Shown piece after piece: positions 24,954-60,250 of a DNA stretch of 64,000 nt. The notes under the pieces were generated by a model. That model saw nothing but the letters and a program-made list of their open reading frames with translations. It had not been told where the DNA came from and did no database searches. Positions within the stretch are counted from its first letter, which is position 1, and every line of letters starts with the position of its first letter. The translations under genes were made by a program, and so were the position numbers. Origin of the DNA: an uncultured Methanosarcinales archaeon (GTDB lineage Archaea > Nanobdellota > Nanobdellia > Woesearchaeales > ARS49); contig CAYHOF010000002.1 of the NCBI GenBank assembly GCA_964358315.1, forward strand, positions 10,738 through 74,737, given 5' to 3'.

Positions 24954-27200
24954 ATGACCACCGTGACGTTCGCGGCTGTGAGGGACATCACGCCGCGGCT
25001 CTATCAGGAGATCATCCTTGCCACGTGTGTCAAGAAGAACACGCTCGTGGTGCTACCCACAGGCATGGGCAAGACCGCGATCGCGCTCCTGCTCGCGCTG
25101 CACCGCATGCAAACACATCCTGGCTCGAAGGTGCTGTTCCTCGCGCCGACAAAGCCGCTCTGTGAGCAGCACATCAGCACGTTCCGCAGGCATCTGGACG
25201 CGCCCGATGACATGTTCTCGCTCTTCACCGGCAGCGTGCCGCCGGCCAAGCGCGCAGCGCAATGGAAAACAGCACAATTCATCTTTTCCACGCCACAAGG
25301 ACTCGAGAACGACATCATGGGCAGCAGCATCAGTCTCGAGGACTGCTCGCTGATCATCTTCGACGAGGCGCATCGTGCGACCGGCGACTACAGCTATGTC
25401 TTTCTCGCGCAACAGTACAACACGCGCGCGAAATTCCCGCACATCCTCGCGTTGACAGCGTCGCCAGGTAGCGAGGTGGAGAAAGTCATGGAGGTGTGCA
25501 CCAACCTCAAGATCGAACAAGTGGAGGTGCGCACGCCCGACGATCCTGACGTGCAGCCCTACGTACAGGAAGTGGACATCCGACCCATCCGCGTGCAGCT
25601 CACGCCAGACATGGAAGCCATACGGAAACTGCTCATCGCGTGCATGCGTTCCAAAGTGGAGGAGTTGCGTAAGGCAGGCCTCACCAAGCTCTCGTTGAAC
25701 CTCTCGAAGCGCGAACTGCTGGGCATGCAAGCAGAATTGCGTGCCAAGATGACGTCAGGCGAGCATGATTATGACACGATGCGCGCGATCTCGGTCGGCG
25801 CGGAAGCGATGAAGGTGCAGCACGCGCTCGAACTGCTCGAATCGCAAGGGCTCTCGCCGCTCATGGAATATTTCGCGAAGCTGCGCGCCGAAGCCGCCGC
25901 CGGACAGAGCAAGGCCGTCAAGAATCTCATGGTCGACGAACACTGGAAGGGCGCGGACATCAAGACGCAACATCTCGCCGACACTGGCGTCGAACACCCT
26001 AAGGTCGAGAAGGTGCAGGAGATCTGCAAGGCCATGGTCGCGGCCAACCCGAAGGCGAAGATCATCGTGTTCACGCAGTACCGCGACACCGCATCCAAAC
26101 TCAAACAAGTGCTTAGTAGCGCGCCAGGCGTGCTTCCCGAAGTGTTCGTCGGCCAGCAAAAAAAGAAAGGCATCGGTTTGTCACAGAAACAGCAGGTCGA
26201 GTTGTTGCAACAGTTCGGCGACGGCCTCTTCAACGTGCTGCTTGCCACGTGCGTCGCCGAAGAAGGCCTTGACATCCCCACCGTCGACTTGGTGCTCTTC
26301 TACGAGCCTGTGCCAAGCGCTATCAGAACAATCCAGCGCCGCGGCCGGACCGGACGACACGAGGCAGGCAAGGTCATGACGCTCATCACGCAAGGCACGC
26401 GCGACGAAGCGTTCGCTGCAAGCGCGAAATACAAGGAACGCAATATGAACGTCATCCTGCAGGACTTGCGCGCCACGCTCAACAAGAAGTTGCTCCAGCA
26501 ACCACAAGCCACGCTCGCGCGCTACGAGAACACGCAACCCCGGATGACCAAGACCGGTCCGAAGATCTACATCGACTACCGTGAGAAAGCCAGCGGCACG
26601 GCCAAAGAGCTGCTTGAGCGCGGCGCACAGATCACGCTCGAGATGCTGCACGTGGGCGACTATATCGTGAGCGAACGATGCGGCATCGAGTTCAAGACGC
26701 AGGACGACTTCCTTGGCAGTATGATCGACGGACGTTTGCTCGAACAGCTCAAGCACCTGCGCAAAGGGTACGAGCGACCGCTCATCATCGTCGAGGGGGA
26801 CAAGGACTTGTACACATTGCGCAACATCCATCCCAACGCCATCCGCGGCATGCTGGCAGCCATCACCGTCACGTACGGCATACCTATGCTGTGGAGCAAG
26901 ACGCCCATCGAGACCGCGCAGCTCATCATGACGATCGCAGAACGCGAACAGAACGAAACGACGAACAGTTTCTCGCCGCACGCGAACCGCAAACCACTTA
27001 CACTTGCACAGCAACAAGAGTACATCGTCAGTGCATTGCCACAAGTGGGCTTGCAACTCGCGCAGGAACTGCTCAAGAAGTTCGGCAGCGTGCAAGCAGT
27101 GCTGAACGCAAGCATCGACGACCTCAAAGCGGTGGAAGGCGTTGGCGACAAGAAAGCGTCGGTGATAATCGATATCGCGAGGAGCAAGTATGGCAATTGA
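24954..27200 (+). CDS. hef: Hef helicase-nuclease (XPF/FANCM family). It has an SF2 helicase domain, an ERCC4 nuclease domain and a C-terminal (HhH)2.
   Basis: Motifs are PTGMGKT, DEAHRATG and QRRGRTGR. The ERCC4 motif is YIDYREK...GDY...ERK...D. A C-terminal HhH pair is also present. Confidence 0.85.
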   Translation: MTTVTFAAVRDITPRLYQEIILATCVKKNTLVVLPTGMGKTAIALLLALHRMQTHPGSKVLFLAPTKPLCEQHISTFRRHLDAPDDMFSLFTGSVPPAKRAAQWKTAQFIFSTPQGLENDIMGSSISLEDCSLIIFDEAHRATGDYSYVFLAQQYNTRAKFPHILALTASPGSEVEKVMEVCTNLKIEQVEVRTPDDPDVQPYVQEVDIRPIRVQLTPDMEAIRKLLIACMRSKVEELRKAGLTKLSLNLSKRELLGMQAELRAKMTSGEHDYDTMRAISVGAEAMKVQHALELLESQGLSPLMEYFAKLRAEAAAGQSKAVKNLMVDEHWKGADIKTQHLADTGVEHPKVEKVQEICKAMVAANPKAKIIVFTQYRDTASKLKQVLSSAPGVLPEVFVGQQKKKGIGLSQKQQVELLQQFGDGLFNVLLATCVAEEGLDIPTVDLVLFYEPVPSAIRTIQRRGRTGRHEAGKVMTLITQGTRDEAFAASAKYKERNMNVILQDLRATLNKKLLQQPQATLARYENTQPRMTKTGPKIYIDYREKASGTAKELLERGAQITLEMLHVGDYIVSERCGIEFKTQDDFLGSMIDGRLLEQLKHLRKGYERPLIIVEGDKDLYTLRNIHPNAIRGMLAAITVTYGIPMLWSKTPIETAQLIMTIAEREQNETTNSFSPHANRKPLTLAQQQEYIVSALPQVGLQLAQELLKKFGSVQAVLNASIDDLKAVEGVGDKKASVIIDIARSKYGN

Positions 27201-27663
27201 TTGGACAGGCACACTGGAAACAGTCAAGACCATTGGAGCACTTCTTGCCTTCGTTGTGCTTTTCTTCCAGTTAAGAGACTACTGGAAAAACCGAGTGGAC
27301 GTGATAATTCTTGTCAAACAACGAACGTTTGAAACTTACAACATGAAGGGATTTGATTCTGAACCGACTACGCGACTCATGATCGAAGCAGACATACGTA
27401 ACATTGGATTACAACCAACAACAATTGCTGAAGTAAAAATGTACTCCAAGGAAAAATCTTTAGACAATAAAAGACTCGATGTCAATGGCCACCAACAAGG
27501 AATTAGATTAGAGCCGAACGACAGAAGAATGGTGACTCTTAGCTATTCTTGGAGTCATGAAATGCCAAACAGTCTAAAGAAAATAGGCGTGAGGCTGCTA
27601 TTCAAAACAACTCACGAAAACAAGAAGAAAACTCTCAAATTAAAAAGAGATATAATATCTTAG
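27190..27663 (+). CDS. Hypothetical protein (157 aa, one N-terminal TM helix) encoded in a sharply low-GC (about 38%) segment.
   Basis: It has AT-rich codons, in contrast to the flanking genes at about 62% GC. It overlaps the hef stop by 11 nt. Confidence 0.5.
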   Translation: MAIDWTGTLETVKTIGALLAFVVLFFQLRDYWKNRVDVIILVKQRTFETYNMKGFDSEPTTRLMIEADIRNIGLQPTTIAEVKMYSKEKSLDNKRLDVNGHQQGIRLEPNDRRMVTLSYSWSHEMPNSLKKIGVRLLFKTTHENKKKTLKLKRDIIS

Positions 27664-28511
27664 AACGTCATCTTCTTCAGTCGGCTGATGCGTTCCTGCA
27701 TGGGCGGGTGCGTGCTGAGCAATGACTGAATCCCGTGGAGCGTGAAGGGGTTGACGATGAACATGCTCGACGTGGCGGGATTGCCGCGCATGGGATTGTG
27801 GCGTACGCCGTTCTCGATTTTATGTAACGCGTCGGCGAGCGAGTGGCCGTCCTTGATGAATGACGCGCCGCTCTGGTCGGCGAGGTATTCGCGGCTGCGT
27901 GAGATGGCCATCTGCAGCAGGAGCGCGATGATGGGCGTGATGATGCCGATGGCGAGGAGCGAGAGGATGTTCCCGCCGTCGCGGTCATCGCTGCCACCGC
28001 CGAAGAGCGCGCCAAAGCGTGCCATCATGGCGACGTAGGAGATGACGGCGGCCATGACGCTTGCGATCGTGGTGATGAGGATGTCGCGGTTCTTGATGTG
28101 TGCCATCTCGTGCGCGATGACGCCGCGCAATTCCTTCTCGGAGAGCAGCGCAAGGATACCTTCCGTGCATGCCACGACGCCGTTTTTCGGGTTACGGCCT
28201 GTCGCGAACGCGTTGGGCGTGGCATTGGGAACGATGTAGACCTTGGGGGTTGGTATGCCGGCGCTCGACGCGACGTCGCTGACGATGGCGTGGAGCCGTG
28301 CGTACTGTTTTTTGTCCGCTTCTTTGGCGCCGTACATGAACAGCACGATCTTCGCGGAGAAGAAGTAGGTGATGACGTTCATGAGCAGCGCGAACACGAG
28401 CGCGATGGTGAGGCCGGTCGAGCCGCCAAAGAATTGTCCGACGACAAGAGCAAGACCGGTGAGCAGGCCAAGCAGCAGTAATGTCTTGATATGATTCTCG
28501 ATCATGGACAA
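27660..28511 (-). CDS. htpX: Zinc metalloprotease HtpX (peptidase M48).
   Basis: It has HEMAHIKNRD and TM segments. Confidence 0.85.
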   Translation of the reverse strand: MSMIENHIKTLLLLGLLTGLALVVGQFFGGSTGLTIALVFALLMNVITYFFSAKIVLFMYGAKEADKKQYARLHAIVSDVASSAGIPTPKVYIVPNATPNAFATGRNPKNGVVACTEGILALLSEKELRGVIAHEMAHIKNRDILITTIASVMAAVISYVAMMARFGALFGGGSDDRDGGNILSLLAIGIITPIIALLLQMAISRSREYLADQSGASFIKDGHSLADALHKIENGVRHNPMRGNPATSSMFIVNPFTLHGIQSLLSTHPPMQERISRLKKMTF

Positions 28512-28531
28512 ACGAGTGTGAAAATGCGTTT

Positions 28532-28885
28532 TTATGCTTTGCGCATCACAAATGTGGAAAGCCCTTCGATGTGCCGCACGGGCGTCGTGAAGAGGAACTC
28601 ACGGAACGTGTTGTCCACGTGCACGCCATGGCGCATGAGGTGCGTGGCGAGTTCGTGGTAGAGCTTGCGGCCTTCCTCGTCGAGGTCGGTGAGCACCATG
28701 CAGTCCTTCGTGAGCGCGGCGACGCGCTCCACCACCTCGAAGAGCGCGCCTTCAAGAGGGATGACGTTCATGATCCCAAGGTCGGCAAGGGAACGCACGT
28801 CCTTCTTGCCTTCGACGATGATGAGTCCTTTGTACTGGCGCAAGCGTTCGAGGTGCGCCTGCAGTTCTTTCTCGTCTACTCTCAT
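28532..28885 (-). CDS. Small Toprim-domain protein (COG1658-like, RNase M5-like fold).
   Basis: The catalytic Toprim residues are present in LIIVEGKKD and VLTDLDEEG. The start is taken at ATG 28885..28883, with a TATA about 25 nt upstream. The longer TTG-start ORF is discounted. Confidence 0.6.
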   Translation of the reverse strand: MRVDEKELQAHLERLRQYKGLIIVEGKKDVRSLADLGIMNVIPLEGALFEVVERVAALTKDCMVLTDLDEEGRKLYHELATHLMRHGVHVDNTFREFLFTTPVRHIEGLSTFVMRKA

Positions 28886-28908
28886 CCACCTGACACCTCC
28901 GCACAAGC

Positions 28909-28916
28909 TATTTAAA
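28909..28916. promoter_or_regulatory. Palindromic TATA element (TATTTAAA) placed to drive both the Toprim gene on the minus strand and the primase gene on the plus strand.
   Basis: It lies 24-31 nt from the minus-strand start at 28885 and 34 nt from the plus-strand ATG at 28950. Confidence 0.45.
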
Positions 28917-28949
28917 GTTACGCGCAACACCATTTCTCGACGGGGGAAT

Positions 28950-30353
28950 ATGGTCATCCACATCAGCACATTGCTCAAGCACTACAAGCGTCCGGAAGTG
29001 CAGCGCGCGCTGGTCGACGCCTCGCAAGACAGGGAAGTGGGCGTGTTCTACGCAGGGAACAACACCTACGGCAAGCGTCCGGACGTGCTCAATTATCCGC
29101 GCGACGTCATGGAGTTCGTGACTAAAGGCGCGACGAGTTTCCACATCAGCGAGGAGCGCTGGAGCAATCCGCTTGGCATCGTGACTGGCGCGTCCCGTCG
29201 GGACCAGGACGACCTGCGCATCGGCTGGGACTTGATCATCGACATCGACTGTCCGTGGCTCGACTACAGCAAGGTCGCTGCGCACGTGATCGCGCAGAAA
29301 TTCCGCAGCATGGGGATCGGTTGTTTCACGATGAAGTTCTCAGGTAACCATGGCTTCCACATCGCAATACCATTCGAGGCGTTTCCTCCGACAGCGACGG
29401 TCGAGGGCAAGGAGCGTGACGTCAAGGACCTCTTCCCCGAGGGACCAAGAAAGATCGCGGCATACCTGCAAGATGAGATCCGCACACCGCTTGGCAGATT
29501 GCTCGTCGAGAAGTTCACGCTCGATGGCATCAAGAACACGACGGGAAAGACGCACGTCGAGCTTGTCAAGCAAGGACCGAAGGGCCCGTACGTCGATCCG
29601 TTCTCGCTGCTCGCCATCGACACTGTGCTCATCGCGTCACGCCATCTCGTGCGCGCGCCCTACAGCATGCACGACAAATCCGGCCTTGTGAGCATCCCGA
29701 TCGACCCGGACACGGTCATCGATTTTGACAAGAAGACGGCCGCGCCGGACGTGATAACGTTCGAGAGGAAATTCCTTGACAGATCGCGCGCGAAACCCAA
29801 TGAAGCACGTCTGATCTTCGACAACGCGTTCGCGCACAAGCTTCCTTCATCACCGTTGCGTGTGCTCAACGAGGACATCGAGAAGGCGATGAAACACCAA
29901 GAGGACACGATACCGACGGAGGCGCTCGCAGAAAGCATGTTCCCGCCCTGTATGCACAACATCAAGAAAGGCCTCAAGGATGGCAAGAAGCGCGCCATGT
30001 TCGCCGCCGTGAATTTTCTCGTGCTCGCAGGCTGGGAGTATGACAAGATCGAGGAATGGCTGCTGCAGTGGAACAAGAACAACCAGGAGGCGTTGCGCGA
30101 GGTGCACATCAAGGGCCACATCCGGTATCACAAGGCGAACAAGAAGAAAATGCCGCCGCCACGCTGCCGGCAGTACTATAAGGACCTCGGCGTGTGCCAA
30201 CCAGACAGCCTCTGTGACCGCATCAAGAACCCGATCCAGTACGCCAAGCGACGGGCGTTCATGGCCAGCATGGACCAGAAGCCGAAAAGGAAGAAGTCCA
30301 CCGACGAGAACGTGAAAGGCGAAGTGGAGATAGGGACGATGAAAGGCGACTAG
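28950..30353 (+). CDS. priS: DNA primase: a catalytic small subunit PriS fused to the Fe-S C-terminal domain of the large subunit (PriL-CTD).
   Basis: The PriS motifs are LIIDIDCPW and FSGNHGFHI. The C-terminal roughly 130 aa have the PriL-CTD signature FPPCM...LAGW...PPPRCRQYY...GVC...SLCDRIKNPIQY. The start is taken at ATG 28950, in frame with ORF 28665. Confidence 0.8.
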   Translation: MVIHISTLLKHYKRPEVQRALVDASQDREVGVFYAGNNTYGKRPDVLNYPRDVMEFVTKGATSFHISEERWSNPLGIVTGASRRDQDDLRIGWDLIIDIDCPWLDYSKVAAHVIAQKFRSMGIGCFTMKFSGNHGFHIAIPFEAFPPTATVEGKERDVKDLFPEGPRKIAAYLQDEIRTPLGRLLVEKFTLDGIKNTTGKTHVELVKQGPKGPYVDPFSLLAIDTVLIASRHLVRAPYSMHDKSGLVSIPIDPDTVIDFDKKTAAPDVITFERKFLDRSRAKPNEARLIFDNAFAHKLPSSPLRVLNEDIEKAMKHQEDTIPTEALAESMFPPCMHNIKKGLKDGKKRAMFAAVNFLVLAGWEYDKIEEWLLQWNKNNQEALREVHIKGHIRYHKANKKKMPPPRCRQYYKDLGVCQPDSLCDRIKNPIQYAKRRAFMASMDQKPKRKKSTDENVKGEVEIGTMKGD

Positions 30354-30436
30354 GGAATATATTTTATATAGAAATTATCAAACTCCTCGTGAATAGGCGT
30401 GTTATTCCCGTCATGTGATGCCTGCCACAACAAGAT

Positions 30437-30444
30437 TTATAAAG
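30437..30444 (+). promoter_or_regulatory. TATA box (TTTATAAA) of the r-protein operon, about 175 nt upstream of the uL3 start codon.
   Basis: A second TATA-like element lies at 30362-30370. This implies a long 5' leader. Confidence 0.4.
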
Positions 30445-30621
30445 GGGCGGCTTTCTCCTCGAAAGTATCGGTACGTATCGACGATATGTGCCTCAAATAC
30501 GCGACAAGCCTGAGAAGGGACATTCTCAGTACAGTCTGTTTAATCACATTCTGTTTCTACGAAAACGTCCCGCGAAAGGCAGACTTGCACTGGCCGAGCC
30601 CACCATAACGGGCAAACCAAT

Positions 30622-31590
30622 ATGCCAACAAGACGAAACCCACGAAAATCGAGTATGCAGTTCTGGCATAGGCGCCGCTCTCCTCGCATGACCGCAAGGA
30701 TCCGCACGTGGGTCGGCACCAAAGACGCGAAACTCCTGGGTTTCTGCGGCTACAAGGTCGGCATGACCCACATCATCCAGATTGACAACCGTTCCACATC
30801 GCTTTCTAAGGGCGAAGAAATCGCCACTCCTGTGACAATCATCGAAACCCCGCCTATGAGAATCATCGGCTTCAAAACGCTCAAGAACACGTACGGCGGC
30901 AAACAAGTCGCGCAGTTCAAGTGGGTCGACAAGACCGAGAAATACCTCGCACGCGCCATCAACGTGCCAAAGCAAGCAAAAGCAGTCGATATCAACGCGC
31001 AAGGCGTCGTCGCCGTGCGCGTGCTCGTCCAGACCCAGCCACACCTCATCAATCTCAAGAAAACCCCTGACATCGTCGAACTCGGCGTCGGCGGCACCGT
31101 CGAGCAGCAGCTCGCCTACGCGAACAGCATGCTCGGCAAGGAAATCAAGCCGACCGACGTGTTCGTCGAAGGCCAACAAGTCGACGCGCACAGCGTCACC
31201 AAAGGCCACGGCCTGCAAGGTCCTGTCGCACGTCACGGCATCATGATCCGCTCGCACAAGGCAGAGAAGACCAAGCGTGGTCCTGCAACGCTCGGTCCGT
31301 GGGACGGCAACCGTTCCTACCGTGTCGCCCACCAGGGCCAGACCGGCTTCCACCGCCGCACCGAGCTCAACAAGTGGATCGTCAAGATCGAAGCAAAACC
31401 TGAGGAAGTCAACCCCAAGGGCGGCTTTGTCCACTACGGCAACGCGAACGTCGCGTGCATGATGCTCAAGGGCAGCATCGGCGGCGCAAGCAAACGACTT
31501 ATCACACTCACACACGCGCACAGACCGCGCGCGAACATCCCGAACAAGGCACCGGAGGTCACGCATATCAGCGTGGCATCAAAACAATGA
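30622..31590 (+). CDS. rpl3: Ribosomal protein uL3.
   Basis: Diagnostic L3 sequence. Confidence 0.9.
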   Translation: MPTRRNPRKSSMQFWHRRRSPRMTARIRTWVGTKDAKLLGFCGYKVGMTHIIQIDNRSTSLSKGEEIATPVTIIETPPMRIIGFKTLKNTYGGKQVAQFKWVDKTEKYLARAINVPKQAKAVDINAQGVVAVRVLVQTQPHLINLKKTPDIVELGVGGTVEQQLAYANSMLGKEIKPTDVFVEGQQVDAHSVTKGHGLQGPVARHGIMIRSHKAEKTKRGPATLGPWDGNRSYRVAHQGQTGFHRRTELNKWIVKIEAKPEEVNPKGGFVHYGNANVACMMLKGSIGGASKRLITLTHAHRPRANIPNKAPEVTHISVASKQ

Positions 31591-32393
31591 ACCTCAAGAT
31601 CATGACGATGGCAAAGACGGAGAAAGGCACCAAGAAGATGCCAGTCCAGTTCGACGAGCCAGTGCGCGTCGACCTCATCCGCCGCGCGGTCGAATCCGTC
31701 TTGTGCAACATGCGCCAGGCATACGGCGCAGACCCCATGGCAGGCAAGCGCCAGGCCGCTAAGATCTCGCGCCGACGCCGCGACTACAAAGGCGCGTACG
31801 GCCAAGGTATCTCCCGTGTCCCGCGGAAGATCATGAGCCGCAACGGCACGCAGATGAACTGGCAGGGCGCATTCGCGCCAGGTACGAAGGGCGGTCGTCG
31901 CGCGCACCCGGCAAAGGCAGAACGCACGCTCTCCAAGGGCATCAATATCAAGGAACGACGCAAGGCGATCCGCAGCGCGCTCGCAGCCACGCTCGACAAG
32001 GATGTCGTGACGTTGCGCGGCCACAAGATCCCGGCAAGTTATCCATTCATCATCGATGCCGATTTCGAGAACCTCGACAAAACCGTCAAGGTCATCGAAG
32101 CACTCACGACGCTGGAACTCGGCGCCGACCTCGAACGCGCCGGCATCCGCAACATCCGCGCAGGCAAGGGCAAGAACCGAGGCCGCCCCTACAAGGGACG
32201 CAAGGGTCCGCTCATCGTCGTCTCGAAATCCTGCCCCCTCGCGAAGGCGGCAAGCAACATCCCGGGCGTGGATGTCGTCGAGGTCAGCAGGCTCAACGCC
32301 GCGCTCCTCGCGCCAGGCACGCACGCAGGACGCCTCACACTCTACACTGAAGCAGCGATCGAGCGCATGGACAAGGAGGGACTGTTCCGATGA
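31587..32393 (+). CDS. rpl4: Ribosomal protein uL4.
   Basis: L4 pattern. The ATG overlaps the uL3 stop (ATGA). Confidence 0.85.
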   Translation: MNLKIMTMAKTEKGTKKMPVQFDEPVRVDLIRRAVESVLCNMRQAYGADPMAGKRQAAKISRRRRDYKGAYGQGISRVPRKIMSRNGTQMNWQGAFAPGTKGGRRAHPAKAERTLSKGINIKERRKAIRSALAATLDKDVVTLRGHKIPASYPFIIDADFENLDKTVKVIEALTTLELGADLERAGIRNIRAGKGKNRGRPYKGRKGPLIVVSKSCPLAKAASNIPGVDVVEVSRLNAALLAPGTHAGRLTLYTEAAIERMDKEGLFR

Positions 32394-32641
32394 ACGTCAT
32401 CCACTTCCCTGTCTCGACGGAAAAGGCGCTGCGCATGATGGAAAGCGAGAACAAGCTCGTCTTCCAGGTAGATGATCGCGCGACCAAGCAGGACATCCGC
32501 ATCGCGATCGAGAAAGAACTCAAGGCAAAGGTCGTGTCCGTCAACGTCGTGCGCACCATCAGGGGCCACAAGCGCGCCTACGTGCGCTTCGCGCCCGAGA
32601 CGCCCGCGATCGACATCGCGACCAACCTGGGGTTGATGTAG
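32390..32641 (+). CDS. rpl23: Ribosomal protein uL23.
   Basis: L23 pattern. Confidence 0.85.
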   Translation: MNVIHFPVSTEKALRMMESENKLVFQVDDRATKQDIRIAIEKELKAKVVSVNVVRTIRGHKRAYVRFAPETPAIDIATNLGLM

Positions 32642-32642
32642 T

Positions 32643-33359
32643 ATGGGTAAATCCCTCATCCAACAGGCACGTGGCAAAGGTGGCCCGCGTTATCGCGCGC
32701 CTAGCTTCCGCTACGAAGGCGAAGCCAAGCATCGCACAATCATCACTGGCACGATGGAAGCCAGAATCATCGACTTCGTCAAATGTCAAGGCCACCTCGC
32801 ACCGCTCGCCAAGCTCAAGTACGACGACGGCGTCGAATCGCTTATCCAGGCAGCCGAAGGTTTGCGTGTCGGCGACAAAGTCACCTACGGTCCGGGCGCT
32901 GATGTGAAAGCAAGCGGCAACACACTCGCGCTCAAAGACATCCCTGACGGCGCTGCCATCTTCAACATCGAAAGCCAGCCGGGCGATGGCGGCAAGTTCT
33001 GCCGCACGAGCGGCACGTTCGCGAAGATCGTCGGTCGCACAGAAGACGGCGTCAACATCATCCTGCCAAGCAAAGTGGAGAGGCTCTTCAACATCAACTG
33101 CCGCGCGATCATCGGTGTCGTCGCAGGATCGGGCCGCACCGAAAAACCGTTCCTCAAGGCAGGCAACATGCACTATCACATGAAGGCGCGCAACAAGCGC
33201 TATCCAAGCATCAGGGCAGCGGCGCAGAACGCCGTCGACCACCCCTACGGTAACAAGCGTACGTCGAGAAAGGCCAAGAACAAGCCTGTCGGCCACGACG
33301 CTCCGCCAGGCAGGAAGGTCGGTACGCTCTGGTCACGCAGGACGGGGAGGAAGAAGTAA
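32643..33359 (+). CDS. rpl2: Ribosomal protein uL2.
   Basis: L2 pattern (GGGKF...HHM). Confidence 0.9.
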   Translation: MGKSLIQQARGKGGPRYRAPSFRYEGEAKHRTIITGTMEARIIDFVKCQGHLAPLAKLKYDDGVESLIQAAEGLRVGDKVTYGPGADVKASGNTLALKDIPDGAAIFNIESQPGDGGKFCRTSGTFAKIVGRTEDGVNIILPSKVERLFNINCRAIIGVVAGSGRTEKPFLKAGNMHYHMKARNKRYPSIRAAAQNAVDHPYGNKRTSRKAKNKPVGHDAPPGRKVGTLWSRRTGRKK

Positions 33360-33429
33360 GATGACGATCACAAACAACGTTTTGGTCGAGCTTTTCGCGC
33401 AGGCGAAAAGGTCGGGAGCGCAGAAGTAA

Positions 33430-33810
33430 ATGGCAAAGGAATTCGTCTGGTACGGGCTGACGTGGGACAAGGTCGAGAAGCTCAGCATGGACGAGTTCGC
33501 GACCTACCTCCCGGCGCGTGCGCGACGCACGCTCAAGCGCGGGATGCGCGAGCCCGAGAAGAAACTGCTCAAGGAAGTCGAGCTTGGCGCACCCAACATC
33601 AAGACCCACTGCAGGGACATGATCATCACGCCTGTGTTCGCAGGCAAGCAGATCAAGATCCACAACGGCAAGGAATTCTTCCTTGTCATGATCGAGAAGG
33701 ACATGATCGGCCACCGGCTCGGCGAGTTCTCGCAGACGCGCAAGCGTGTCGAGCACAGCGCACCCGGTATCGGCGCGACGCGCAGTTCAGCGTCGATGAG
33801 CGTGAAGTAA
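33430..33810 (+). CDS. rps19: Ribosomal protein uS19.
   Basis: S19 pattern. Confidence 0.9.
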   Translation: MAKEFVWYGLTWDKVEKLSMDEFATYLPARARRTLKRGMREPEKKLLKEVELGAPNIKTHCRDMIITPVFAGKQIKIHNGKEFFLVMIEKDMIGHRLGEFSQTRKRVEHSAPGIGATRSSASMSVK

Positions 33811-33812
33811 AC

Positions 33813-34295
33813 ATGACAGAGTACGGCTACGGATACAAGGCAGGACAGAACGAGGCCAAGGCGGTCGGCGTGGGCCTGCCCATATCCTACAAGCACGGCA
33901 GCGAAGTGGCCAGGTTCATCCGCGGGATGAAGGTCAGCAGGGCCAAGACCGTGCTCGACAACGTCATGCGCTTCAAGGAAGCAGTGCCCTACACGCGCTA
34001 CTTTGAGGAGATCGCCCACCAGAAGAACGTGGGCCCTGGGCGCTTCCCTATCAAGACGTGCAAGAACATCCTTGCCATCCTCGAGAGCGCCGAGGCAAAC
34101 GCGCAGTTCAAGGGGCTCAACACAGGCAACCTCATCATCAAGCATATCGCAGCGCAAGGCGGCGGCAAGGTACACCACTACGGTCGCAACGGCCGCAAAG
34201 CCAAACGCGCGCACATCGAGATCGTCCTCGCGGAATCCGCGCAAACGGCGAAACCCACCAAGAAGGAGGGCAGCAAAGCTGCACCCAAGAAATGA
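33813..34295 (+). CDS. rpl22: Ribosomal protein uL22.
   Basis: L22 pattern. The start is an internal ATG, in frame with ORF 33462. Confidence 0.85.
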   Translation: MTEYGYGYKAGQNEAKAVGVGLPISYKHGSEVARFIRGMKVSRAKTVLDNVMRFKEAVPYTRYFEEIAHQKNVGPGRFPIKTCKNILAILESAEANAQFKGLNTGNLIIKHIAAQGGGKVHHYGRNGRKAKRAHIEIVLAESAQTAKPTKKEGSKAAPKK

Positions 34296-35110
34296 TCGAG
34301 AGGAAATTCGTCAAGGAACAAGTACGCGGCCTTCTCCTCGAGGAGTTCGTCAGCGAGACGCTCAAGAACGTGGGCCTCAGCCACGTCAAGATGTCGCGCA
34401 CGCCGCTCGGCGAGAAGATCACCATCTTCGCCTCGCGCCCCGGCCTCGTGGTCGGACGCAAGGGCGAGAACATCAAGAAGCTCACGCAGACGCTCAAGAA
34501 GAAGTTCGAGCTCGAGAACCCGCAGATCGAGATCGCGGAAGTGTCCGACCCGAACCTGGACGCGCGCATCGTCGGTGAACGCATCGCGAGCACGATCGAA
34601 CGCTTCGGCATCCAGAAGTTCAAGGCCGTGGGCCACAAGACCATGACAGATGTCATGCACTCTGGCGCGCTCGGTGTCCAGATCACGATTTCGGGCAAGA
34701 TCCCGGGCGCACGTGCGAAGACGTGGCGCTTCTACAACGGCTACCTCAAGAAGAGCGGCCAGATCGCCATGGATGGCGTGCGGCACGCGAGCACGGTGGC
34801 CAACATGAAATCCGGCTGCATCGGCATCCAGGTATGGATCATGCCGGCCGACGTGCACCGCCCTGACGACATCCACGTCATCATGGAGCACACGGCGCCT
34901 GCCGTCGTGGCAAAGACAGAGGAGCCCAAGAAGGAAGAGAAGAAGAAGCGCGCGCCCCGCAAGAAAGCGGCCAAGAAACAACGGGAAGAGACATCCCACG
35001 CTCAAGGAAGCGATGCTTCCGTTGAAAAGACCGAAGAAAGCGTCGAAGCCGCCGAAACGGCACCCGTGGAAGCGAAAGAAGAGACCAAGGAGGAGACCGA
35101 TGAAGCGTAA
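34292..35110 (+). CDS. rps3: Ribosomal protein uS3, which carries a KH domain and a Lys/Glu-rich tail.
   Basis: S3 pattern. The start is an ATGA overlap. Confidence 0.9.
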   Translation: MIERKFVKEQVRGLLLEEFVSETLKNVGLSHVKMSRTPLGEKITIFASRPGLVVGRKGENIKKLTQTLKKKFELENPQIEIAEVSDPNLDARIVGERIASTIERFGIQKFKAVGHKTMTDVMHSGALGVQITISGKIPGARAKTWRFYNGYLKKSGQIAMDGVRHASTVANMKSGCIGIQVWIMPADVHRPDDIHVIMEHTAPAVVAKTEEPKKEEKKKRAPRKKAAKKQREETSHAQGSDASVEKTEESVEAAETAPVEAKEETKEETDEA

Positions 35111-35300
35111 GGACGTGCTCGGTCTCGCGCCCGCGGAGAGGGCAGGCAAGCTTGCCGAGCTGCGCTCCGAGCTCATGAAGTTACGATCACAAGCGTCGAC
35201 GGGCACTGCCCAGAAGGCGTCGGGCCGCATCCGTGCGGCACGGCGCGCGATCGCGAGGATACTGACACTACAACGACAAGGAGGGACGAACAAGGAATGA
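35100..35300 (+). CDS. rpl29: Ribosomal protein uL29.
   Basis: L29 pattern (MKRKDV...LRSELMKLR). Confidence 0.8.
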   Translation: MKRKDVLGLAPAERAGKLAELRSELMKLRSQASTGTAQKASGRIRAARRAIARILTLQRQGGTNKE

Positions 35301-35608
35301 GTGACGTGTGCGAAACGTGTGGCCTGCCCGAGGAACTCTGCGTGTGCGAAAGCATAGCGAAAGAGAGCCAGAAGATCGAGATCAGGACCACCGAAAAGAA
35401 ATTCCACAAGAGCTACACTGTCATCAGCGGCATCGACCCAAAGGAAGTCGACATCAAGGACTTGGCCAAGACCCTCAAGAACAAATTGGCGTGCGGGGGC
35501 ACGGTCAAGGACAATGTCATCGAACTCCAAGGCAACCACCTCAAGGATGCGAAGGGCATCCTGGTCGCGGCGGGGTTCGCTCCCGAAATGATCATCGTCA
35601 AAGGATAA
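35297..35608 (+). CDS. Translation initiation factor SUI1 (aIF1).
   Basis: SUI1 pattern (IRTTEKKFHKSYTVISGI...LACGGTV). Confidence 0.85.
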   Translation: MSDVCETCGLPEELCVCESIAKESQKIEIRTTEKKFHKSYTVISGIDPKEVDIKDLAKTLKNKLACGGTVKDNVIELQGNHLKDAKGILVAAGFAPEMIIVKG

Positions 35609-35610
35609 CC

Positions 35611-35976
35611 ATGGCAACTGAAAAAACAATCGGAACACGCGGACGCGAATTCGTCGGCACTGTCGTCAATGCGAAGATGCAGAAGACGGTCACGGTCGAA
35701 TGGCCACGACAGGTATTCATCCCAAAGTTCGAGAGGTTCCTCACCAAGCGCACGCGCGTCAAGGCCCATAACCCGGCAGAGATCGACGCGAAGGTAGGCG
35801 ACCGTGTGCGGATCCAGGAGTGCAGGCCGATCAGCAAGACCAAGTCATTCAAGATCATGGAGAAGCTCGGTGTCGACTTCAAGTACGTCGCACGCGAGGA
35901 GCACCTCAAGGAAGGCGTCGTCGCGCGCGCCGAGAAAGCACGCGAACACCCCAAGGGAGAGGTCAAGGAAGCATGA
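35611..35976 (+). CDS. rps17: Ribosomal protein uS17.
   Basis: S17 pattern. No rpp29 ORF lies between sui1 and rps17. Confidence 0.85.
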   Translation: MATEKTIGTRGREFVGTVVNAKMQKTVTVEWPRQVFIPKFERFLTKRTRVKAHNPAEIDAKVGDRVRIQECRPISKTKSFKIMEKLGVDFKYVAREEHLKEGVVARAEKAREHPKGEVKEA

Positions 35977-36374
35977 AGGCAGTCACGAGCCGCATGACGC
36001 GGGCACTCAACCACGGGACGTGGGTCGAGACCTGTGACAACAGCGGCGCCAAGATCCTCAAGATCATGACGGTCAACCGTCACAAGACGGTCAAGGGACG
36101 CGTGCCGCAGGCCGCGGTCGCCGACCTCGTCATGTGCTCGGTCAAGAGCGGCAAGCCCGACATGCGTAAGCAGGTCGTGTACGCCATCATCGTCCGGCAG
36201 AAGAAGGCGTGGCGCCGCAAGGACGGCACGCGCATCTGTTTCGAGGACAACGCGGCTGTCGTCGTCAAGGACAAGGACGGCAACCCCAAGGGCACGGTCA
36301 TCAAGGGACCGATCGCGAAGGAAGTGGCGGACCGATGGCCGCTGCTCGCAAAGAACGCATCATTGATAGTATGA
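35973..36374 (+). CDS. rpl14: Ribosomal protein uL14.
   Basis: L14 pattern. The start is an ATGA overlap. Confidence 0.9.
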   Translation: MKAVTSRMTRALNHGTWVETCDNSGAKILKIMTVNRHKTVKGRVPQAAVADLVMCSVKSGKPDMRKQVVYAIIVRQKKAWRRKDGTRICFEDNAAVVVKDKDGNPKGTVIKGPIAKEVADRWPLLAKNASLIV

Positions 36375-36384
36375 TACCAATACC

Positions 36385-36837
36385 ATGAAACAATTCACAT
36401 CAAGCTGGAAGGCAAGCAACAAGCCGAACAAGCAGCGCCTGTACGTGTACAGCGCGCCCTTGCACGTCAAGAGCGCGATGCTCGCCGCCCACCTCTCGAA
36501 GGAGCTGCGCGAGAAGCTCAAGAAGCGCTCGATGCGCGTGCGTGTCGGTGACAAGGTCGTCGTCATGAACGGCGAGCACCACAAGAAGAACGGCAAGATC
36601 GAGAGCGTCGATTTGCAGGCGCAGCGCGTGTACATCGCCGGTATCGAACAGGTGCGCAAGGACGGCGGCAAGTCGCTCATCCCCTTCCACCCGAGCAATC
36701 TCGTCATCACCGAGATGGTGAGCGACAAGATGCGCACGAAATCCCGATCACAAAAAGCGCCGGCCGCCAAGGAGACGAAGGCGCCCAAGGCCAAACCAGC
36801 ACTGAAGGAAACCAAGAAAGGGAAGGAATCACAATGA
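36385..36837 (+). CDS. rpl24: Ribosomal protein uL24 (KOW domain).
   Basis: L24 pattern. Confidence 0.85.
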   Translation: MKQFTSSWKASNKPNKQRLYVYSAPLHVKSAMLAAHLSKELREKLKKRSMRVRVGDKVVVMNGEHHKKNGKIESVDLQAQRVYIAGIEQVRKDGGKSLIPFHPSNLVITEMVSDKMRTKSRSQKAPAAKETKAPKAKPALKETKKGKESQ

Positions 36838-37508
36838 GCAGTTACCTCAAGAGATACGCGGCACCGCGCAGCTGGACGCTGCTGCGCAAGGAGACCAAGT
36901 ACGTCATGAAGTCCTCGCCTGGCGCGCACGCGATGGAACACAGCATGCCGATTGGCATGCTGCTCAAGTCGCTGGGCCATGCGTCCACGACCAAGGAAGC
37001 AGGACTCATCATGCGCAACAGCAACGTGCTCATCGACGGTCGCCGCATCAAGGACCACAAGTTCGCGCTCGGCCTCATGGACACCGTCACGCTCAAGGAA
37101 TCAGGCGAGCACTACCGCGTCGTCATCGACGACAAGGCGCGCATCATGCTCGCGAAGATCAGCGGCAAGGACGCCGCGAGCAAGGCATGCCGCGTGCTCG
37201 GCAAGACAGTCATCAAGGGCGGCAAGCTGCAGCTCAACCTCAGCGGCGGTCGCTGCGTCATCACGGATAAGAAAGATTTGTCAGTCGGCGACACCGTCAT
37301 GCTCTCGCTGCCTGACCAGAAGATCACCAGCACGCTCAAACTCGAGAAAGACGCCACCATCCTGCTCACCGCAGGGCGCCATGCCGGCACGATCGGCACC
37401 GTCGAGGACATCACGGAGGAGCGCATCCGCTACGCCACCAAGGACGGCAGCGAGCAGACGCTCACGGACTACGCGTTCGTCATTCCGGAAGGCATGATCA
37501 CACAATGA
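36834..37508 (+). CDS. rps4e: Ribosomal protein eS4.
   Basis: S4e pattern. Confidence 0.9.
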   Translation: MSSYLKRYAAPRSWTLLRKETKYVMKSSPGAHAMEHSMPIGMLLKSLGHASTTKEAGLIMRNSNVLIDGRRIKDHKFALGLMDTVTLKESGEHYRVVIDDKARIMLAKISGKDAASKACRVLGKTVIKGGKLQLNLSGGRCVITDKKDLSVGDTVMLSLPDQKITSTLKLEKDATILLTAGRHAGTIGTVEDITEERIRYATKDGSEQTLTDYAFVIPEGMITQ

Positions 37509-38026
37509 ACCCGATGCAACAGTTGCGGATCGAGAAGCTCACGCTGAACATCGGCGCGGGCAAGGACCAGGCAGTGCTCGAGAAAGGCATGACTGTCATC
37601 AAGAGCATCACCGGCATCGAGCCGCAGAAGAGGATCACACAGAAACGCATCCCGTCATGGGGACTGCGCCCGGGCCTCCCTGTCGGCGTGCGCCTCACCC
37701 TGCGCGGCAAGAAAGCGGAGGAGATGCTGCGCCGCACGCTCAAGGCAAAAGAATTCAAGCTCCGTCCGACGCACTTCGACAACGCAGGCAGCGTGTCGTT
37801 CGGCGTGCCGGAACACATCGAGATCGAGGGCGCCAAGTACGACCCGAAGATCGGCGTCATGGGACTGCAAGTGTGCGTCACGCTCGAGAAGCCCGGCTTC
37901 CACGTCAAGCGCAGGCGCGTCCGCGCGTCGCCCGTGGGCAAAGCACACAGGATCTCGCGCGACCAGAGCATGGCGTTCATGAAGGAGAAGTTCGGCGTCA
38001 ATGTCGCTGAAGGTGAGGAAGCATGA
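37505..38026 (+). CDS. rpl5: Ribosomal protein uL5.
   Basis: L5 pattern. Confidence 0.9.
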   Translation: MNPMQQLRIEKLTLNIGAGKDQAVLEKGMTVIKSITGIEPQKRITQKRIPSWGLRPGLPVGVRLTLRGKKAEEMLRRTLKAKEFKLRPTHFDNAGSVSFGVPEHIEIEGAKYDPKIGVMGLQVCVTLEKPGFHVKRRRVRASPVGKAHRISRDQSMAFMKEKFGVNVAEGEEA

Positions 38027-38253
38027 CGAGCAAGGACTGGCGCAAGACGCTCAAACAACTCAAGGCAAAACCGACCGTGAGGCAGAAGTACATCAAGCAC
38101 AACTCACCGAACGAGCGCACGACCGGCACTGCGTTGCAGAAATGCCGCCGCTGCGGACAGACACGGGCCCACATCAGCAAGTACGGGCTGCACCTGTGCC
38201 GCCTGTGCTTCAAGGACATAGCACTGAGCATCGGTTTCAAGAAATACAATTAG
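38023..38253 (+). CDS. rps14: Ribosomal protein uS14 (zinc-binding type).
   Basis: It has CRRCGQTRAHISKYGLHLCRLCF. Confidence 0.85.
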   Translation: MTSKDWRKTLKQLKAKPTVRQKYIKHNSPNERTTGTALQKCRRCGQTRAHISKYGLHLCRLCFKDIALSIGFKKYN

Positions 38254-38262
38254 GAGAACACA

Positions 38263-38652
38263 ATGAACAACGACCCACTCGCGAACGCGATGTCAAAGAT
38301 CGTCAACTACGAGAAGATCGGACGCAACAGCGTCCAGGTCTACCCTGTCGGCGACCTTGCGAAGGGCGTCCTCGCGATCCTCAACAAGCACGGGTATGTC
38401 GGCACGCTCGAGGAACTGAAGACCACGCGCGGCACGGTCTGCACGCTCGCCTTGCTTGGCACGATCAACAGCGCAGGCGTCATCAAGCCGCGTTTCGCGG
38501 TCGGCACGGACAAGTTCGAGAGGTTCGAAAAGCGTTTCCTGCCTGCACAAGGCGTCGGCGTCATCATCATATCCACGTCCAAGGGCCTCATGACCCTGGA
38601 CGAGGCGCGCAAGGAGAATGTCGGAGGCAGGCTGATCGCCTACTGCTACTGA
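38263..38652 (+). CDS. rps8: Ribosomal protein uS8.
   Basis: S8 pattern. Confidence 0.9.
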   Translation: MNNDPLANAMSKIVNYEKIGRNSVQVYPVGDLAKGVLAILNKHGYVGTLEELKTTRGTVCTLALLGTINSAGVIKPRFAVGTDKFERFEKRFLPAQGVGVIIISTSKGLMTLDEARKENVGGRLIAYCY

Positions 38653-39194
38653 TGAAACAGACTCTCACGTACAACGTTGCCGTGCCTGAAGGCATCGACG
38701 TAGCCGTCAAGGGACGTGACGTCACGGTCAAGGGCAAGAACGGCGCCATCACGCGCCGCCTGCTCGAGCCCCGTGTCACGATCAACGTCGATGGCAAACA
38801 AGTCGTCATCCAGGCGCACAAGTCGACCAAGCGCGAGAAGATGTACATGGGCACGATCCAGGCCCACATCACCAACATGATCAAGGGCGTGCAGGAACCG
38901 TACCTGTACAGGCTCAAGGTGTGCGCAAGCCACTTCCCGATGAACGTCACCGTGGTCGGCAACGAGCTCGTGGTCAAGAACTTCCTCGGCGAGAAAGTGC
39001 CGCGCAAGATCGGCTTCGACGCCGACGTCAAGGTCAAGATCGCGGGCGACGTGATCGAGGTCACGGCGGCCGACATCGAACTCGCAGGACGCACCGCGTC
39101 CAAGTTCGAGGGGATCACGTTCATCAACAAGCGCGACCGCCGCATCTTCCAGGACGGCATCTATATCACGCACAAACCAGGAGTCGATGTATAA
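38652..39194 (+). CDS. rpl6: Ribosomal protein uL6.
   Basis: L6 pattern. The start is an internal ATG overlapping the rps8 stop. Confidence 0.85.
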   Translation: MKQTLTYNVAVPEGIDVAVKGRDVTVKGKNGAITRRLLEPRVTINVDGKQVVIQAHKSTKREKMYMGTIQAHITNMIKGVQEPYLYRLKVCASHFPMNVTVVGNELVVKNFLGEKVPRKIGFDADVKVKIAGDVIEVTAADIELAGRTASKFEGITFINKRDRRIFQDGIYITHKPGVDV

Positions 39195-39768
39195 TACCAT
39201 GGCAGACATGATCAAGCTCAGGAAGGAGATCAAGGACCGTAAGCCTACGTTCCGCCGCCAGATCTACAACCACAGGCCGAACTTGGCCACGACCGGCTGG
39301 CGCAAGCCCAAGGGCTTGCACAGCAAGATGCGGCACAAGAGCGCAGGCCATCAGGCATGCGTGAGCGTGGGTTGGGGCTCGCCTGTCGATGTCGAAGGCA
39401 TGCACCCGAGCGGGCTGTGGCCCATCATCGTCAACAACATGGCGCAGGTCGCGACCCTTGATGCCAAGACGCAGGGCGCGCTCATCGCAGCAGGCGTGGG
39501 CACCCGCGCACGCCTCGGCATCGTCGACGCGCTTGTCAAGAAGAACATCACCATCCTCAACATGAAGGAGCCCAAGAGCTTCGCCGCGACCGTCGCTGCC
39601 GGCATGAAGGCGCGCAAGGACGCAAAGGCGAAGAAAACGGCGCCCAAGGAAGAGAAGAAGCCGTCAAGCAAACCCGCCGCAAAACCCGAACCTGCCATGT
39701 CCGAGGAGGACAAGAAAGAGACGCAGCGCAGGGAAGCGGAGAAAGTCATGATCCAGAAGGAGCGATGA
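39187..39768 (+). CDS. rpl32e: Ribosomal protein eL32 with a Lys/Ala-rich C-terminal extension.
   Basis: L32e pattern. Confidence 0.8.
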   Translation: MYNTMADMIKLRKEIKDRKPTFRRQIYNHRPNLATTGWRKPKGLHSKMRHKSAGHQACVSVGWGSPVDVEGMHPSGLWPIIVNNMAQVATLDAKTQGALIAAGVGTRARLGIVDALVKKNITILNMKEPKSFAATVAAGMKARKDAKAKKTAPKEEKKPSSKPAAKPEPAMSEEDKKETQRREAEKVMIQKER

Positions 39769-39769
39769 A

Positions 39770-40210
39770 ATGATACAACGCAGACTCGCCGCAACCATCT
39801 TCAAGTGCTCGCCGCAGCGCGTGCGCTTCGATGAGACGCGCCTCGCGGACATCAAGGAAGCGATCACCAAGGCCGACGTGCGCGGCCTCATCAAGGAAGG
39901 AATCATCACACGCCTGCCGGTTCACGGCAACGCGAACACGCGCAAGAACGTGCGTGCCAAGCAGAACGCAAAGGGCCGCCGACGTGGCGCAGGCAGTCGT
40001 AAGGGCAAGGCCAACGCACGCATGCCGGAGAAGCAGGTGTGGATGGCACGCATCCGCGTCCAACGCGCGCTGCTCAACCGTCTCCGCGACCGTCAGAAGA
40101 TCGCGGACGACACCTTCCGTGACCTGTACATGAAGGCCAAGGGCGGCTTTTTCCGTAGCGAGAGGCACATCAAAGTCTATCTGGAGGAACAGAACCTGTT
40201 CACGAAGTGA
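39770..40210 (+). CDS. rpl19e: Ribosomal protein eL19.
   Basis: L19e pattern. Confidence 0.85.
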   Translation: MIQRRLAATIFKCSPQRVRFDETRLADIKEAITKADVRGLIKEGIITRLPVHGNANTRKNVRAKQNAKGRRRGAGSRKGKANARMPEKQVWMARIRVQRALLNRLRDRQKIADDTFRDLYMKAKGGFFRSERHIKVYLEEQNLFTK

Positions 40211-40791
40211 TCATCATGGCAACCAATCAACGTTACGTCGTCCCCTTCCGCCGCAAGCGCGAAGGACGCACAGACTACCACAAGCGGCTCAAGCTGCTCA
40301 GCGGCGACGCGCCCAGGTTCGTGATCCGCAAGTCATTGCACCACATGCGCGTGCAGCTCGTCGTGTACGAACCGATGGGCGACAAGGTCCTTGTGAGTGC
40401 GACGACCGAAGAGCTCGTCAAGAAGGGATACAAGGGCGCGACATGCAACGTTCCTGCCGCCTACTTGTGCGGCATGCTGCTCGCAATCAAGGCAAAGGAC
40501 AAGAAGATCGAGCGCGCAGTCGCTGACATCGGCCTCTCGACGCCGGTGCGCGGCTCGGTGCTCTTCGCCGCGGTCGCGGGCGCGCGCGCAGGCGGGCTTG
40601 ACGTGCCCACGGACGAGAAAGCGCTGCCTTCCGAGGACCGCCTCAAGGGCATGCACGTCGCGGCGTACGCGAAACTGCTCAAGAAAGACGATGCCCTGTA
40701 CAAGCGCACGTTCAGCGCGTACCTCAAGAACGGGCTGGCTCCTGAAGAGCTGCCCAAACATGTAGAAGAGATACAGAAAAAACTCAAGTGA
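40207..40791 (+). CDS. rpl18: Ribosomal protein uL18.
   Basis: L18 pattern. Confidence 0.85.
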   Translation: MIIMATNQRYVVPFRRKREGRTDYHKRLKLLSGDAPRFVIRKSLHHMRVQLVVYEPMGDKVLVSATTEELVKKGYKGATCNVPAAYLCGMLLAIKAKDKKIERAVADIGLSTPVRGSVLFAAVAGARAGGLDVPTDEKALPSEDRLKGMHVAAYAKLLKKDDALYKRTFSAYLKNGLAPEELPKHVEEIQKKLK

Positions 40792-41633: not shown

Positions 41634-41992
41634 GCGACAACATCGCGATCGTGCGCGTCCGCGCGCAGGTCCGCATGAGCGGCATGAACGAGGAGACGCT
41701 GCACTTGCTCAACGTGCCTGTGCCAAACTCCTGCGCCGTCATCAAGAACACGCCTGAGAAGATGAACATGGTCACGCGTGTCGCAGGCGTCCTCACCTGG
41801 GGCGAGCTCTCGGACGAGTCGCTCGCGCTGCTGCGCAAGAAGGCGAAGGACCCCAAGGCCACGCATTTCAGGCTCAACCCGCCCCGCAAGGGCTACAGCA
41901 AGAAGGGCTCGAAACTGCCCTTCGTCGTCGGCGGCGCGCTCGGATACCGCGGCGACAAGATCAACGATTTGATTCAACGCATGGTGGACTAA
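41630..41992 (+). CDS. rpl30: Ribosomal protein uL30.
   Basis: L30 pattern. Confidence 0.8.
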   Translation: MSDNIAIVRVRAQVRMSGMNEETLHLLNVPVPNSCAVIKNTPEKMNMVTRVAGVLTWGELSDESLALLRKKAKDPKATHFRLNPPRKGYSKKGSKLPFVVGGALGYRGDKINDLIQRMVD

Positions 41993-42424: not shown

Positions 42425-42427
42425 ACC

Positions 42428-43822: not shown

Positions 43823-43824
43823 GG

Positions 43825-59819: not shown

Positions 59820-59917
59820 CGTGACGTCCCCTTTTGTGTGGTTCCATCTGCAATGCAGGTTATTTAAGTTTTTGCAGACTGTATTTGTTGTATCGAAGGA
59901 TCAGTAATGATAATACT

Positions 59918-59947
59918 CCACAGTCACCCCTTGATTTCCTCTGGAAC
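59918..59947 (-). promoter_or_regulatory. Origin recognition box ORB1, a dyad plus G-string.
   Basis: The reverse complement reads ATTGTTCCAGAGGAAATCAAGGGGTGACTGTGG, which resembles the archaeal ORB consensus (TTCCAnnGGAAA plus GGGG). Confidence 0.5.
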
Positions 59948-59949
59948 AA

Positions 59950-60225: not shown

Positions 60226-60226
60226 T

Positions 60227-60250
60227 TTCCATACGAAATCAAGGGGTGGG
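60227..60250 (+). promoter_or_regulatory. Origin recognition box ORB2, inverted relative to ORB1.
   Basis: TTCCATACGAAATCAAGGGGTGGG shares the core GAAATCAAGGGGTG with ORB1. Confidence 0.5.

Follow-up and report, generated by a model that had tools for sequence, protein, structure and literature searches.

Single-chain DNA primases of the Nanoarchaeum equitans type, in which the PriS catalytic domain is joined to the Fe-S domain of PriL, were described by Raymann et al. 2014, who credit Iyer et al. 2005 with the first note of this fusion (PMC3914693). That study found the fusion in Nanoarchaeota, Parvarchaeota and Nanohaloarchaea and proposed it as a synapomorphy of nanosized archaea, while recording that in the nanohaloarchaeon Nanosalina J07AB43 the two halves are separate, adjacent genes (PMC3914693). 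Dombrowski et al. 2020 reported the fused gene in all Undinarchaeota and all lineages of DPANN Cluster 2, within which the Woesearchaeota and Nanoarchaeota are counted, as against the separate priS and priL retained by DPANN Cluster 1 (PMC7414124). A 2026 preprint (10.64898/2026.06.17.729505) treats the fusion as a synapomorphy of a clade named 'Nanostetteria' and suggests an ancient mobile-element origin for it. Here we analyze a 64,000-nucleotide stretch of contig CAYHOF010000002.1 from an uncultured archaeon (hereinafter the window), in which a forward-strand gene at 28950..30353 encodes a complete fused (monomeric) PriS-PriL primase of 467 aa, with the C-terminal domain (CTD) of PriL as its second half. 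We consider it very probable that this gene codes for the replicative single-chain DNA primase of a Woesearchaeota/Nanoarchaeota-type archaeon of DPANN Cluster 2.

The fusion is to be expected here because the window comes from a fused-primase lineage. The initial annotation of this gene, made from the sequence alone, had recognized the two halves and correctly linked them to Nanoarchaeum-like DPANN, but its statement that such fusions are confined to a few reduced lineages does not hold: beyond their universality in Cluster 2 and Undinarchaeota (PMC7414124), relatives of the protein are encoded in at least 567 species genomes of GTDB. With the fused PriS-PriL described since 2005, proposed as a shared character in 2014, found universal in Cluster 2 and Undinarchaeota in 2020 and characterized biochemically in 2023, a fused primase is already known and standard for this DPANN group. 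Hence the gene carries little weight as a discovery, its practical value lying instead in annotation and taxonomy.

The characterized member of this family is NEQ395, the monomeric primase of N. equitans, a brown protein containing a [4Fe-4S] cluster (Schneider, Bergsch & Lipps 2023, PMC10250227). The enzyme combines high activity with sequence specificity, produces primers of about 9 nt, and is the only archaeo-eukaryotic primase (AEP) superfamily protein of its genome. Its PriS domain alone supports extension but not initiation, for which R301, R303 and F306 of the CTD are required, and mutation of D87/D89 abolishes activity, whereas the Cys mutants are still active. The two domains work only in cis, with no complementation in trans, and primer length is set by the length of the linker between them (PMC10250227).

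The window gene is a single uninterrupted open reading frame (ORF) of 1,404 nt with an ATG start and a TAG stop. The choice of start codon is backed by the N-termini of the homologues, which align to it (MxIHxSTLLK...), and by two upstream elements read directly from the sequence, namely a palindromic TATA-like box, TTTAAA (28911..28916), and a Shine-Dalgarno-like GGGGG run (28943-28947). Both lie in the 64-bp intergenic region separating the gene from a divergent Toprim-domain gene, and the former is a putative promoter element. The encoded protein is 100% identical to AABY13_04675, a protein from a metagenome-assembled genome (MAG) of a Nanoarchaeota archaeon, which NCBI names only 'hypothetical protein'. 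The label reflects a gap in annotation and no biological departure from the fused primase family, and AABY13_04675 should be renamed DNA primase (fused PriS/PriL).

The N-terminal AEP/PriS-type catalytic domain, delineated with Pfam, AlphaFold2 (AF2) and Foldseek, comprises residues 1-295 (28950..29834). Both PriS motifs quoted in the initial annotation are present, DIDCPW at residues 98-103 (nt 29241-29258) and SGNHGFH at residues 131-137. The former contains motif I, of the form hhhDhD (LIIDID), with D98-I-D100 (29241..29249) providing the predicted metal ligands; the latter constitutes motif II (sxH), S131-G-N-H-G-F-H137 (29340..29360). Motif III is centered on D224 (AID) and followed by the predicted nucleotide-binding R231-H232-x2-R235 (29619..29654), a stretch that also aligns to human Pri1. 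Across an alignment of the primase with 25 homologues of 46-74% identity (26 sequences), H65, D98, D100, S131, G132, N133, H137, D224, R231, H232 and R235 are invariant, as are G135 and F136 of motif II. No Cys/His-rich zinc motif was seen between motifs I and II, the N-terminal 300 residues having C101 and C125 as their only Cys.

The catalytic domain is separated from the PriL-CTD by only about 30 residues, which form a flexible interdomain linker (residues 296-327; 29835..29930) with low predicted local distance difference test (pLDDT) values and with variable length and sequence among homologues. The CTD itself spans residues 328-442 (29931..30275), about 115 aa, and includes the basic-aromatic segment K346-K-R348-x2-F351. 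All elements of the Fe-S domain signature given in the initial annotation were located: FPPCM (331-335), PPPRCRQYY (402-410), GVC (414-416), SLC (420-422) and NPIQY (427-431). The protein has six Cys in total, of which exactly four fall in the C-terminal third, and these are the predicted cluster ligands 1 to 4: Cys334 of FPPC (29949..29951), Cys406 of PPxxC (30165..30167), Cys416 of GVC (30195..30197) and Cys422 of SLC, the last followed by NPxxY (30213..30215). C334, R348, C406 and C422 are invariant in the 26 sequences, and C416 and F351 are kept in at least 90% of them. The chain ends in a Lys/Arg-rich tail (residues 443-467; 30276..30350) with low pLDDT, the sequence of which is not conserved, although the tails of the homologues are also basic.

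Profile searches agree with this assignment of the C-terminal half. The Pfam model DNA_primase_lrg (PF04104) matches residues 309-426 (E=4.9e-8) with 33.1 bits, above its cut-off of 22.4, but covers only profile positions 88-218 of 266; likewise, the NCBIfam PriL equivalog models match at about 1e-9 over residues ~306-454 with only their C-terminal ~40% (model positions ~205-350 of ~358). As only C-terminal parts of the PriL models are matched, the PriL N-terminal domain (NTD) is absent from this protein. A PDB search with the single sequence recovered human and other Pri1 proteins around RHLxxxPxSxHxKSG and Pyrococcus abyssi PriL at residues 402-442, while a profile of the 26 family members matches P. 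abyssi PriL (9f26_B) at E=5e-8. In that alignment FPPC pairs with LFPPC, and the PPNC...C.PD..C..NP..Y pattern pairs with its equivalent in P. abyssi PriL: the motif with Cys406 faces PPNC, that with Cys416 LC-TPD and that with Cys422 HC-KYVRNPLTY. All four Cys motifs thus have their counterparts in a canonical archaeal PriL, and the possibility raised at the outset that the C-terminal region might fail to match PriL profiles can be set aside.

The full-length AF2 model (mean pLDDT 84.6, predicted template modelling score (pTM) 0.63) gives two confidently predicted domains joined by a flexible linker and ending in a disordered basic tail, with pLDDT mostly above 90 in the catalytic domain and below 50 at residues 300-318 and 450-467. 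Foldseek comparisons of the modelled catalytic domain against the PDB return, at probability 1.00, Prim-PolC, LigD polymerase domains, human and yeast Pri1, and the archaeal PriS structures 1zt2, 1g71 and 9f28, with the structural alignments to canonical primases showing only 12-17% identity. The C-terminal domain is predicted to have the PriL-CTD fold, whose likeness to photolyases has been published (PMC2852410).

When set beside NEQ395, the window primase shows the same layout: a compact AEP domain, a linker and a four-Cys PriL-CTD in one chain lacking the PriL-NTD. The segment just before the CTD is protease-sensitive in NEQ395 and has low pLDDT in the window primase. By spacing, the identical DxD motifs correspond as D87/D89 and D98/D100, and motif II corresponds to S119/H125, the Ser and His being 6 residues apart in both proteins. 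The motif III series matches D194/H202/R205 of NEQ395 with steps of 8 and 3 residues from D to H to R in both, and the distances from the first Cys to the R/K, R and F positions (R301/R303/F306 in NEQ395) are 12, 14 and 17 residues in both. The Cys spacings are 72/10/6 in the window primase versus 75/12/8 in NEQ395. The window protein is longer (467 versus 393 aa), with a larger helical insertion separating motifs II and III (87 versus 69 residues from H to D), an interdomain segment of 99 versus 84 residues and a basic C-terminal tail. The hosts also differ, being a mesophilic groundwater organism with ~58% GC on the one hand and a hyperthermophile on the other. As a mesophilic and well-conserved member of the family, the window primase could serve as another minimal model for initiation by archaeo-eukaryotic primases.

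Relative to the canonical PriS and PriL of P. abyssi (9f26/9f28), Sulfolobus solfataricus (1zt2/5of3) and human (4rr2), the window primase has in common catalytic motifs I-III and a PriL-CTD fold with the FPPC ... PPNC ... C.PD..C..NP..Y Cys pattern. However, while the canonical enzyme is encoded by two genes, with a PriL that carries a PriS-docking NTD, the window enzyme is encoded by one gene and lacks that NTD; it is accordingly no canonical heterodimer. Compared with the fused family of DPANN Cluster 2 and Undinarchaeota, it has the same domain content and no qualitative difference, and is a member of that family.

From the homology with NEQ395 we infer how the protein might work. The flexible linker would tether the N-terminal AEP domain to the four-Cys PriL-CTD, and this covalent link would take the place of the lost PriL-NTD, which normally docks PriL to PriS. 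D98, D100 and D224 are predicted to support metal-dependent nucleotidyl transfer, with H65, S131, H137, H232 and R235 holding the elongating nucleoside triphosphate (NTP). The CTD would swing in cis onto the active site, where the helix bearing K346, R348 and F351 could bind the NTP that starts the primer along with the 5′ end of the growing chain, making the formation of the first dinucleotide possible; how long a primer becomes before synthesis stops would then be determined by the length of the linker. The four Cys are the most likely ligands of a [4Fe-4S] cluster that, by analogy, would have a structural or regulatory role and not be needed for catalysis itself.

Relatives of the protein are numerous. 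More than 3,228 clusters at 90% identity score at E<=1e-3, with the 120 listed among them spanning 92-100% of the query, and a HMMER search through all of 1.84 billion cluster representatives (50% identity) recovered 661 clusters at E<=1e-3, of which 288 reach E<=1e-30. Full-length fused proteins from MAGs of Woesearchaeota and Nanoarchaeota make up the nearest relatives (41-74% identity), and where a relative bears a lineage name, this is mostly Woesearchaeota, Nanoarchaeota or Nanoarchaeia. For comparisons of loci (tblastn and synteny) we used the best 80 of the loci encoding relatives in GTDB species genomes, the closest of which in the species-representative collection has 74% identity to the primase. 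Scans of the window with Rfam and for tRNAs found two tRNAs only and no rRNA gene; hence, the host placement rests on the protein relatives, whose labels are mostly those of lineages counted in DPANN Cluster 2, one of the groups with the fused gene. Conversely, the fused primase can be used as a quick marker of the membership of a contig in the Cluster 2 DPANN clade.

Size variation within the family forms a separate observation. Many fused-primase homologues, with total lengths of 500-550 aa, have an insertion after about residue 200 and match in two stretches. Other members are much longer (P0141, P0152, P0186 and P0247; 880-1,020 aa), and their match to the primase begins only at about residue 560-610 or is broken into three parts, which hints at inteins or additional N-terminal domains in certain lineages of fused primases.

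Several other explanations of the gene have to be weighed against a replicative primase of the host. The fusion could be an artefact in which a frameshift, a sequencing error or an assembly join, for instance at the junction around 29850 as the initial annotation had considered, merged an adjacent short priS and short priL. Such a pair of neighbouring genes does exist in Nanosalina J07AB43 (PMC3914693), and the linker region is both poorly conserved and modelled with low confidence. Nevertheless, the gene recurs with zero mismatches over its 1,404 nt on two further contigs, L001 and L002, which belong to separate ENA assemblies (ERZ1292635 and ERZ1292629) of Hainich groundwater samples; all 25 aligned homologues run colinearly and continuously through the PriS/PriL junction; the best local alignments of the 119 other proteins listed by BLASTP span 92-99% of the query; and each of the 80 genomic loci gives one continuous tblastn match over about residues 1-450. 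The identical DNA on independent contigs, the full-length homologues and the continuous matches together exclude a frameshift or join at the junction, leaving an artefact next to no chance. A different origin is offered by integrated plasmids or viruses, the primase-polymerases of which, such as PolpTN2 of pTN2, ORF904 of pRN1 and RepB', have an AEP domain joined to a helix-bundle or PriL-like domain. Yet the helical domains of pRN1 ORF904, RepB' of RSF1010, PolpTN2 and Sulfolobus PriX lack a four-Cys Fe-S site, and these proteins are plasmid-encoded or an extra subunit, whereas the window primase keeps its four conserved Cys, has no helicase domain by Pfam and is chromosomal in a housekeeping context. 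It sits between Hef, HtpX-like and Toprim genes and the L3-L4-L23-L2 ribosomal operon, an order recurring in dozens of related genomes; Pfam searches of the 30 larger ORFs of the window found no adjacent integrase, helicase fusion or other mobile-element gene; and its GC content is not atypical. The 64-kb window contains no other primase, and no canonical priS/priL has been reported in these lineages (PMC7414124). On this genomic context we reject a mobile-element origin of the present copy, and consider it very unlikely that the gene encodes anything other than a host enzyme on this account; an ancient mobile-element origin of the family as a whole would not change its present-day role.

Some points weigh against a replicative primase of the host. 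Pfam DNA_primase_S (PF01896) matches residues 108-252 (E=4.1e-5) with 24.4 bits, just under its cut-off of 26.8, so that of the two Pfam checks envisaged at the start, the PriL half passes and the PriS half narrowly falls short. Structurally, the catalytic domain is closest to AEPs of the bacterial Prim-PolC/LigD type, not to PriS, which marks it as a divergent, compact AEP. The residue correspondence with NEQ395 is one of spacing and motif context, not of sequence alignment, and it is from NEQ395 that primase activity is carried over to the window protein. How the AF2 model orients the two domains relative to each other is unreliable (pTM 0.63, linker pLDDT <50), and its interdomain geometry is not confident enough to show whether the CTD folds back on the catalytic site, the structural check put forward in the initial annotation. 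Finally, the evidence for a sole primase covers the 64-kb window. Some of these observations, namely the Foldseek matches to Prim-PolC and LigD polymerase domains, along with a Pfam LigD_Prim-Pol match (residues 57-150, E=3e-4, 20.9 bits versus a cut-off of 27.4) and the Toprim protein encoded next door, would fit a repair or translesion Prim-Pol resembling the polymerases of non-homologous end joining, with an incidental PriL-like domain and with priming left to another enzyme such as an archaeal DnaG/Toprim protein. However, the neighbouring Toprim protein has only 117 aa, lacks the zinc-binding and helicase-interaction parts of DnaG and matches a family named 'hypothetical protein' (PRK04017); there is no Ku or ligase gene adjacent to the primase; the PriL-CTD is a hallmark of de novo initiation; and NEQ395, an ortholog and the sole AEP of its genome, is a genuine primase of high activity (PMC10250227). 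We therefore hold a repair enzyme to be highly improbable and retain the replicative primase as the explanation of the gene. Hidden Markov models built from each half detected no second PriS or PriL-CTD in a six-frame translation of the window, and Pfam found no second PriS or PriL among the 30 larger ORFs, bearing out the earlier remark that no separate priL was seen there; the fused protein is probably the only primase of its host.

The primase belongs to a block of genes (24954-44000) with the order Hef / HtpX-like / Toprim / primase / L3-L4-L23-L2 ribosomal operon. Upstream of the primase are the Hef helicase-nuclease (24954-27200, forward strand), the HtpX-like protease (27660-28511, reverse strand) and the small Toprim-domain protein (28532..28885, reverse strand); downstream, ribosomal protein L3 (30622-31590, forward strand) is the first gene of the L3-L4-L23-L2 operon. 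From the conserved order of the block, the primase is placed directly upstream of the main ribosomal operon. Within the 3-kb flanks of the 80 related loci we found Hef in 42, HtpX in 45, Toprim in 43 and L3 in 50, and the synteny block is conserved across many Woesearchaeota-type genomes. The recurrence of these neighbours indicates a stable chromosomal position and not a mobile element. With respect to the HtpX-like gene, its called length is 324 aa on L001 (5270-6244) as compared to the 283-aa ORF of the window, and in an ungapped comparison L001 and the window are out of register upstream of the primase, the primase gene itself being identical. This loss of register points to an indel or strain variant in that upstream region.

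The Toprim protein, called on both L001 and L002 (Pfam Toprim E=1e-8; NCBIfam PRK04017 E=2.5e-15), is a conserved neighbour of the primase, from which it diverges across the 64-bp spacer; where a homologue was found, in 43 of the 80 related loci, it is located no more than 3 kb upstream of the fused primase, often as its direct neighbour. One might posit that it is a dedicated functional partner of the monomeric primase, the two genes forming an AEP and Toprim priming module specific to this DPANN clade. In such a module it could act, for example, as a primer-processing nuclease or as a DnaG-like accessory factor compensating for the lost PriL-NTD and its surfaces. However, as Hef and HtpX are equally conserved neighbours, a functional link is not separable from inherited gene order, and we regard a dedicated partnership as improbable.

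The Pfam survey of the 30 larger ORFs otherwise returned housekeeping genes, including a replication set of MCM, PolD DP1 and DP2, and Cdc6/Orc1. The MCM helicase ORF (45376-49068, forward strand; 1,230 aa) has its P-loop domain interrupted by a LAGLIDADG-bearing intein, with Pfam Intein_splicing at residues 481-963 and LAGLIDADG_3 at residues 695-762. The cdc6/orc1 gene (58605-59819, reverse strand) has PolD DP1 and DP2 (53604-58642, reverse strand) immediately beside it, and the intergenic region next to cdc6/orc1 (59820-60378) shows a dip in GC content (0.49 versus ~0.58). A 27-nt inverted repeat, at 59925-59951 and 60222-60248, consists of CACCCCTTGATTTCCTCTGGAACAATA and its near-complement (89% complementary), and borders about 270 bp of very AT-rich DNA, in a likeness to origin recognition box (ORB) elements around a duplex-unwinding element. 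Judging from these sequence features, the intergenic region is a likely replication origin.

Elsewhere in the window, a single ORF (7129-8574, forward strand) encodes SAICAR synthetase (PurC, residues 31-242) together with AIR carboxylase (PurE, residues 360-479) in a PAICS-like fusion. It belongs to a small purine-biosynthesis cluster that also encodes an IMP cyclohydrolase-like protein (6335-7132) and an adenylosuccinate lyase (8580-10028). DPANN archaea are generally thought to be without nucleotide biosynthesis, and the PAICS-like fusion is unusual for a DPANN genome.

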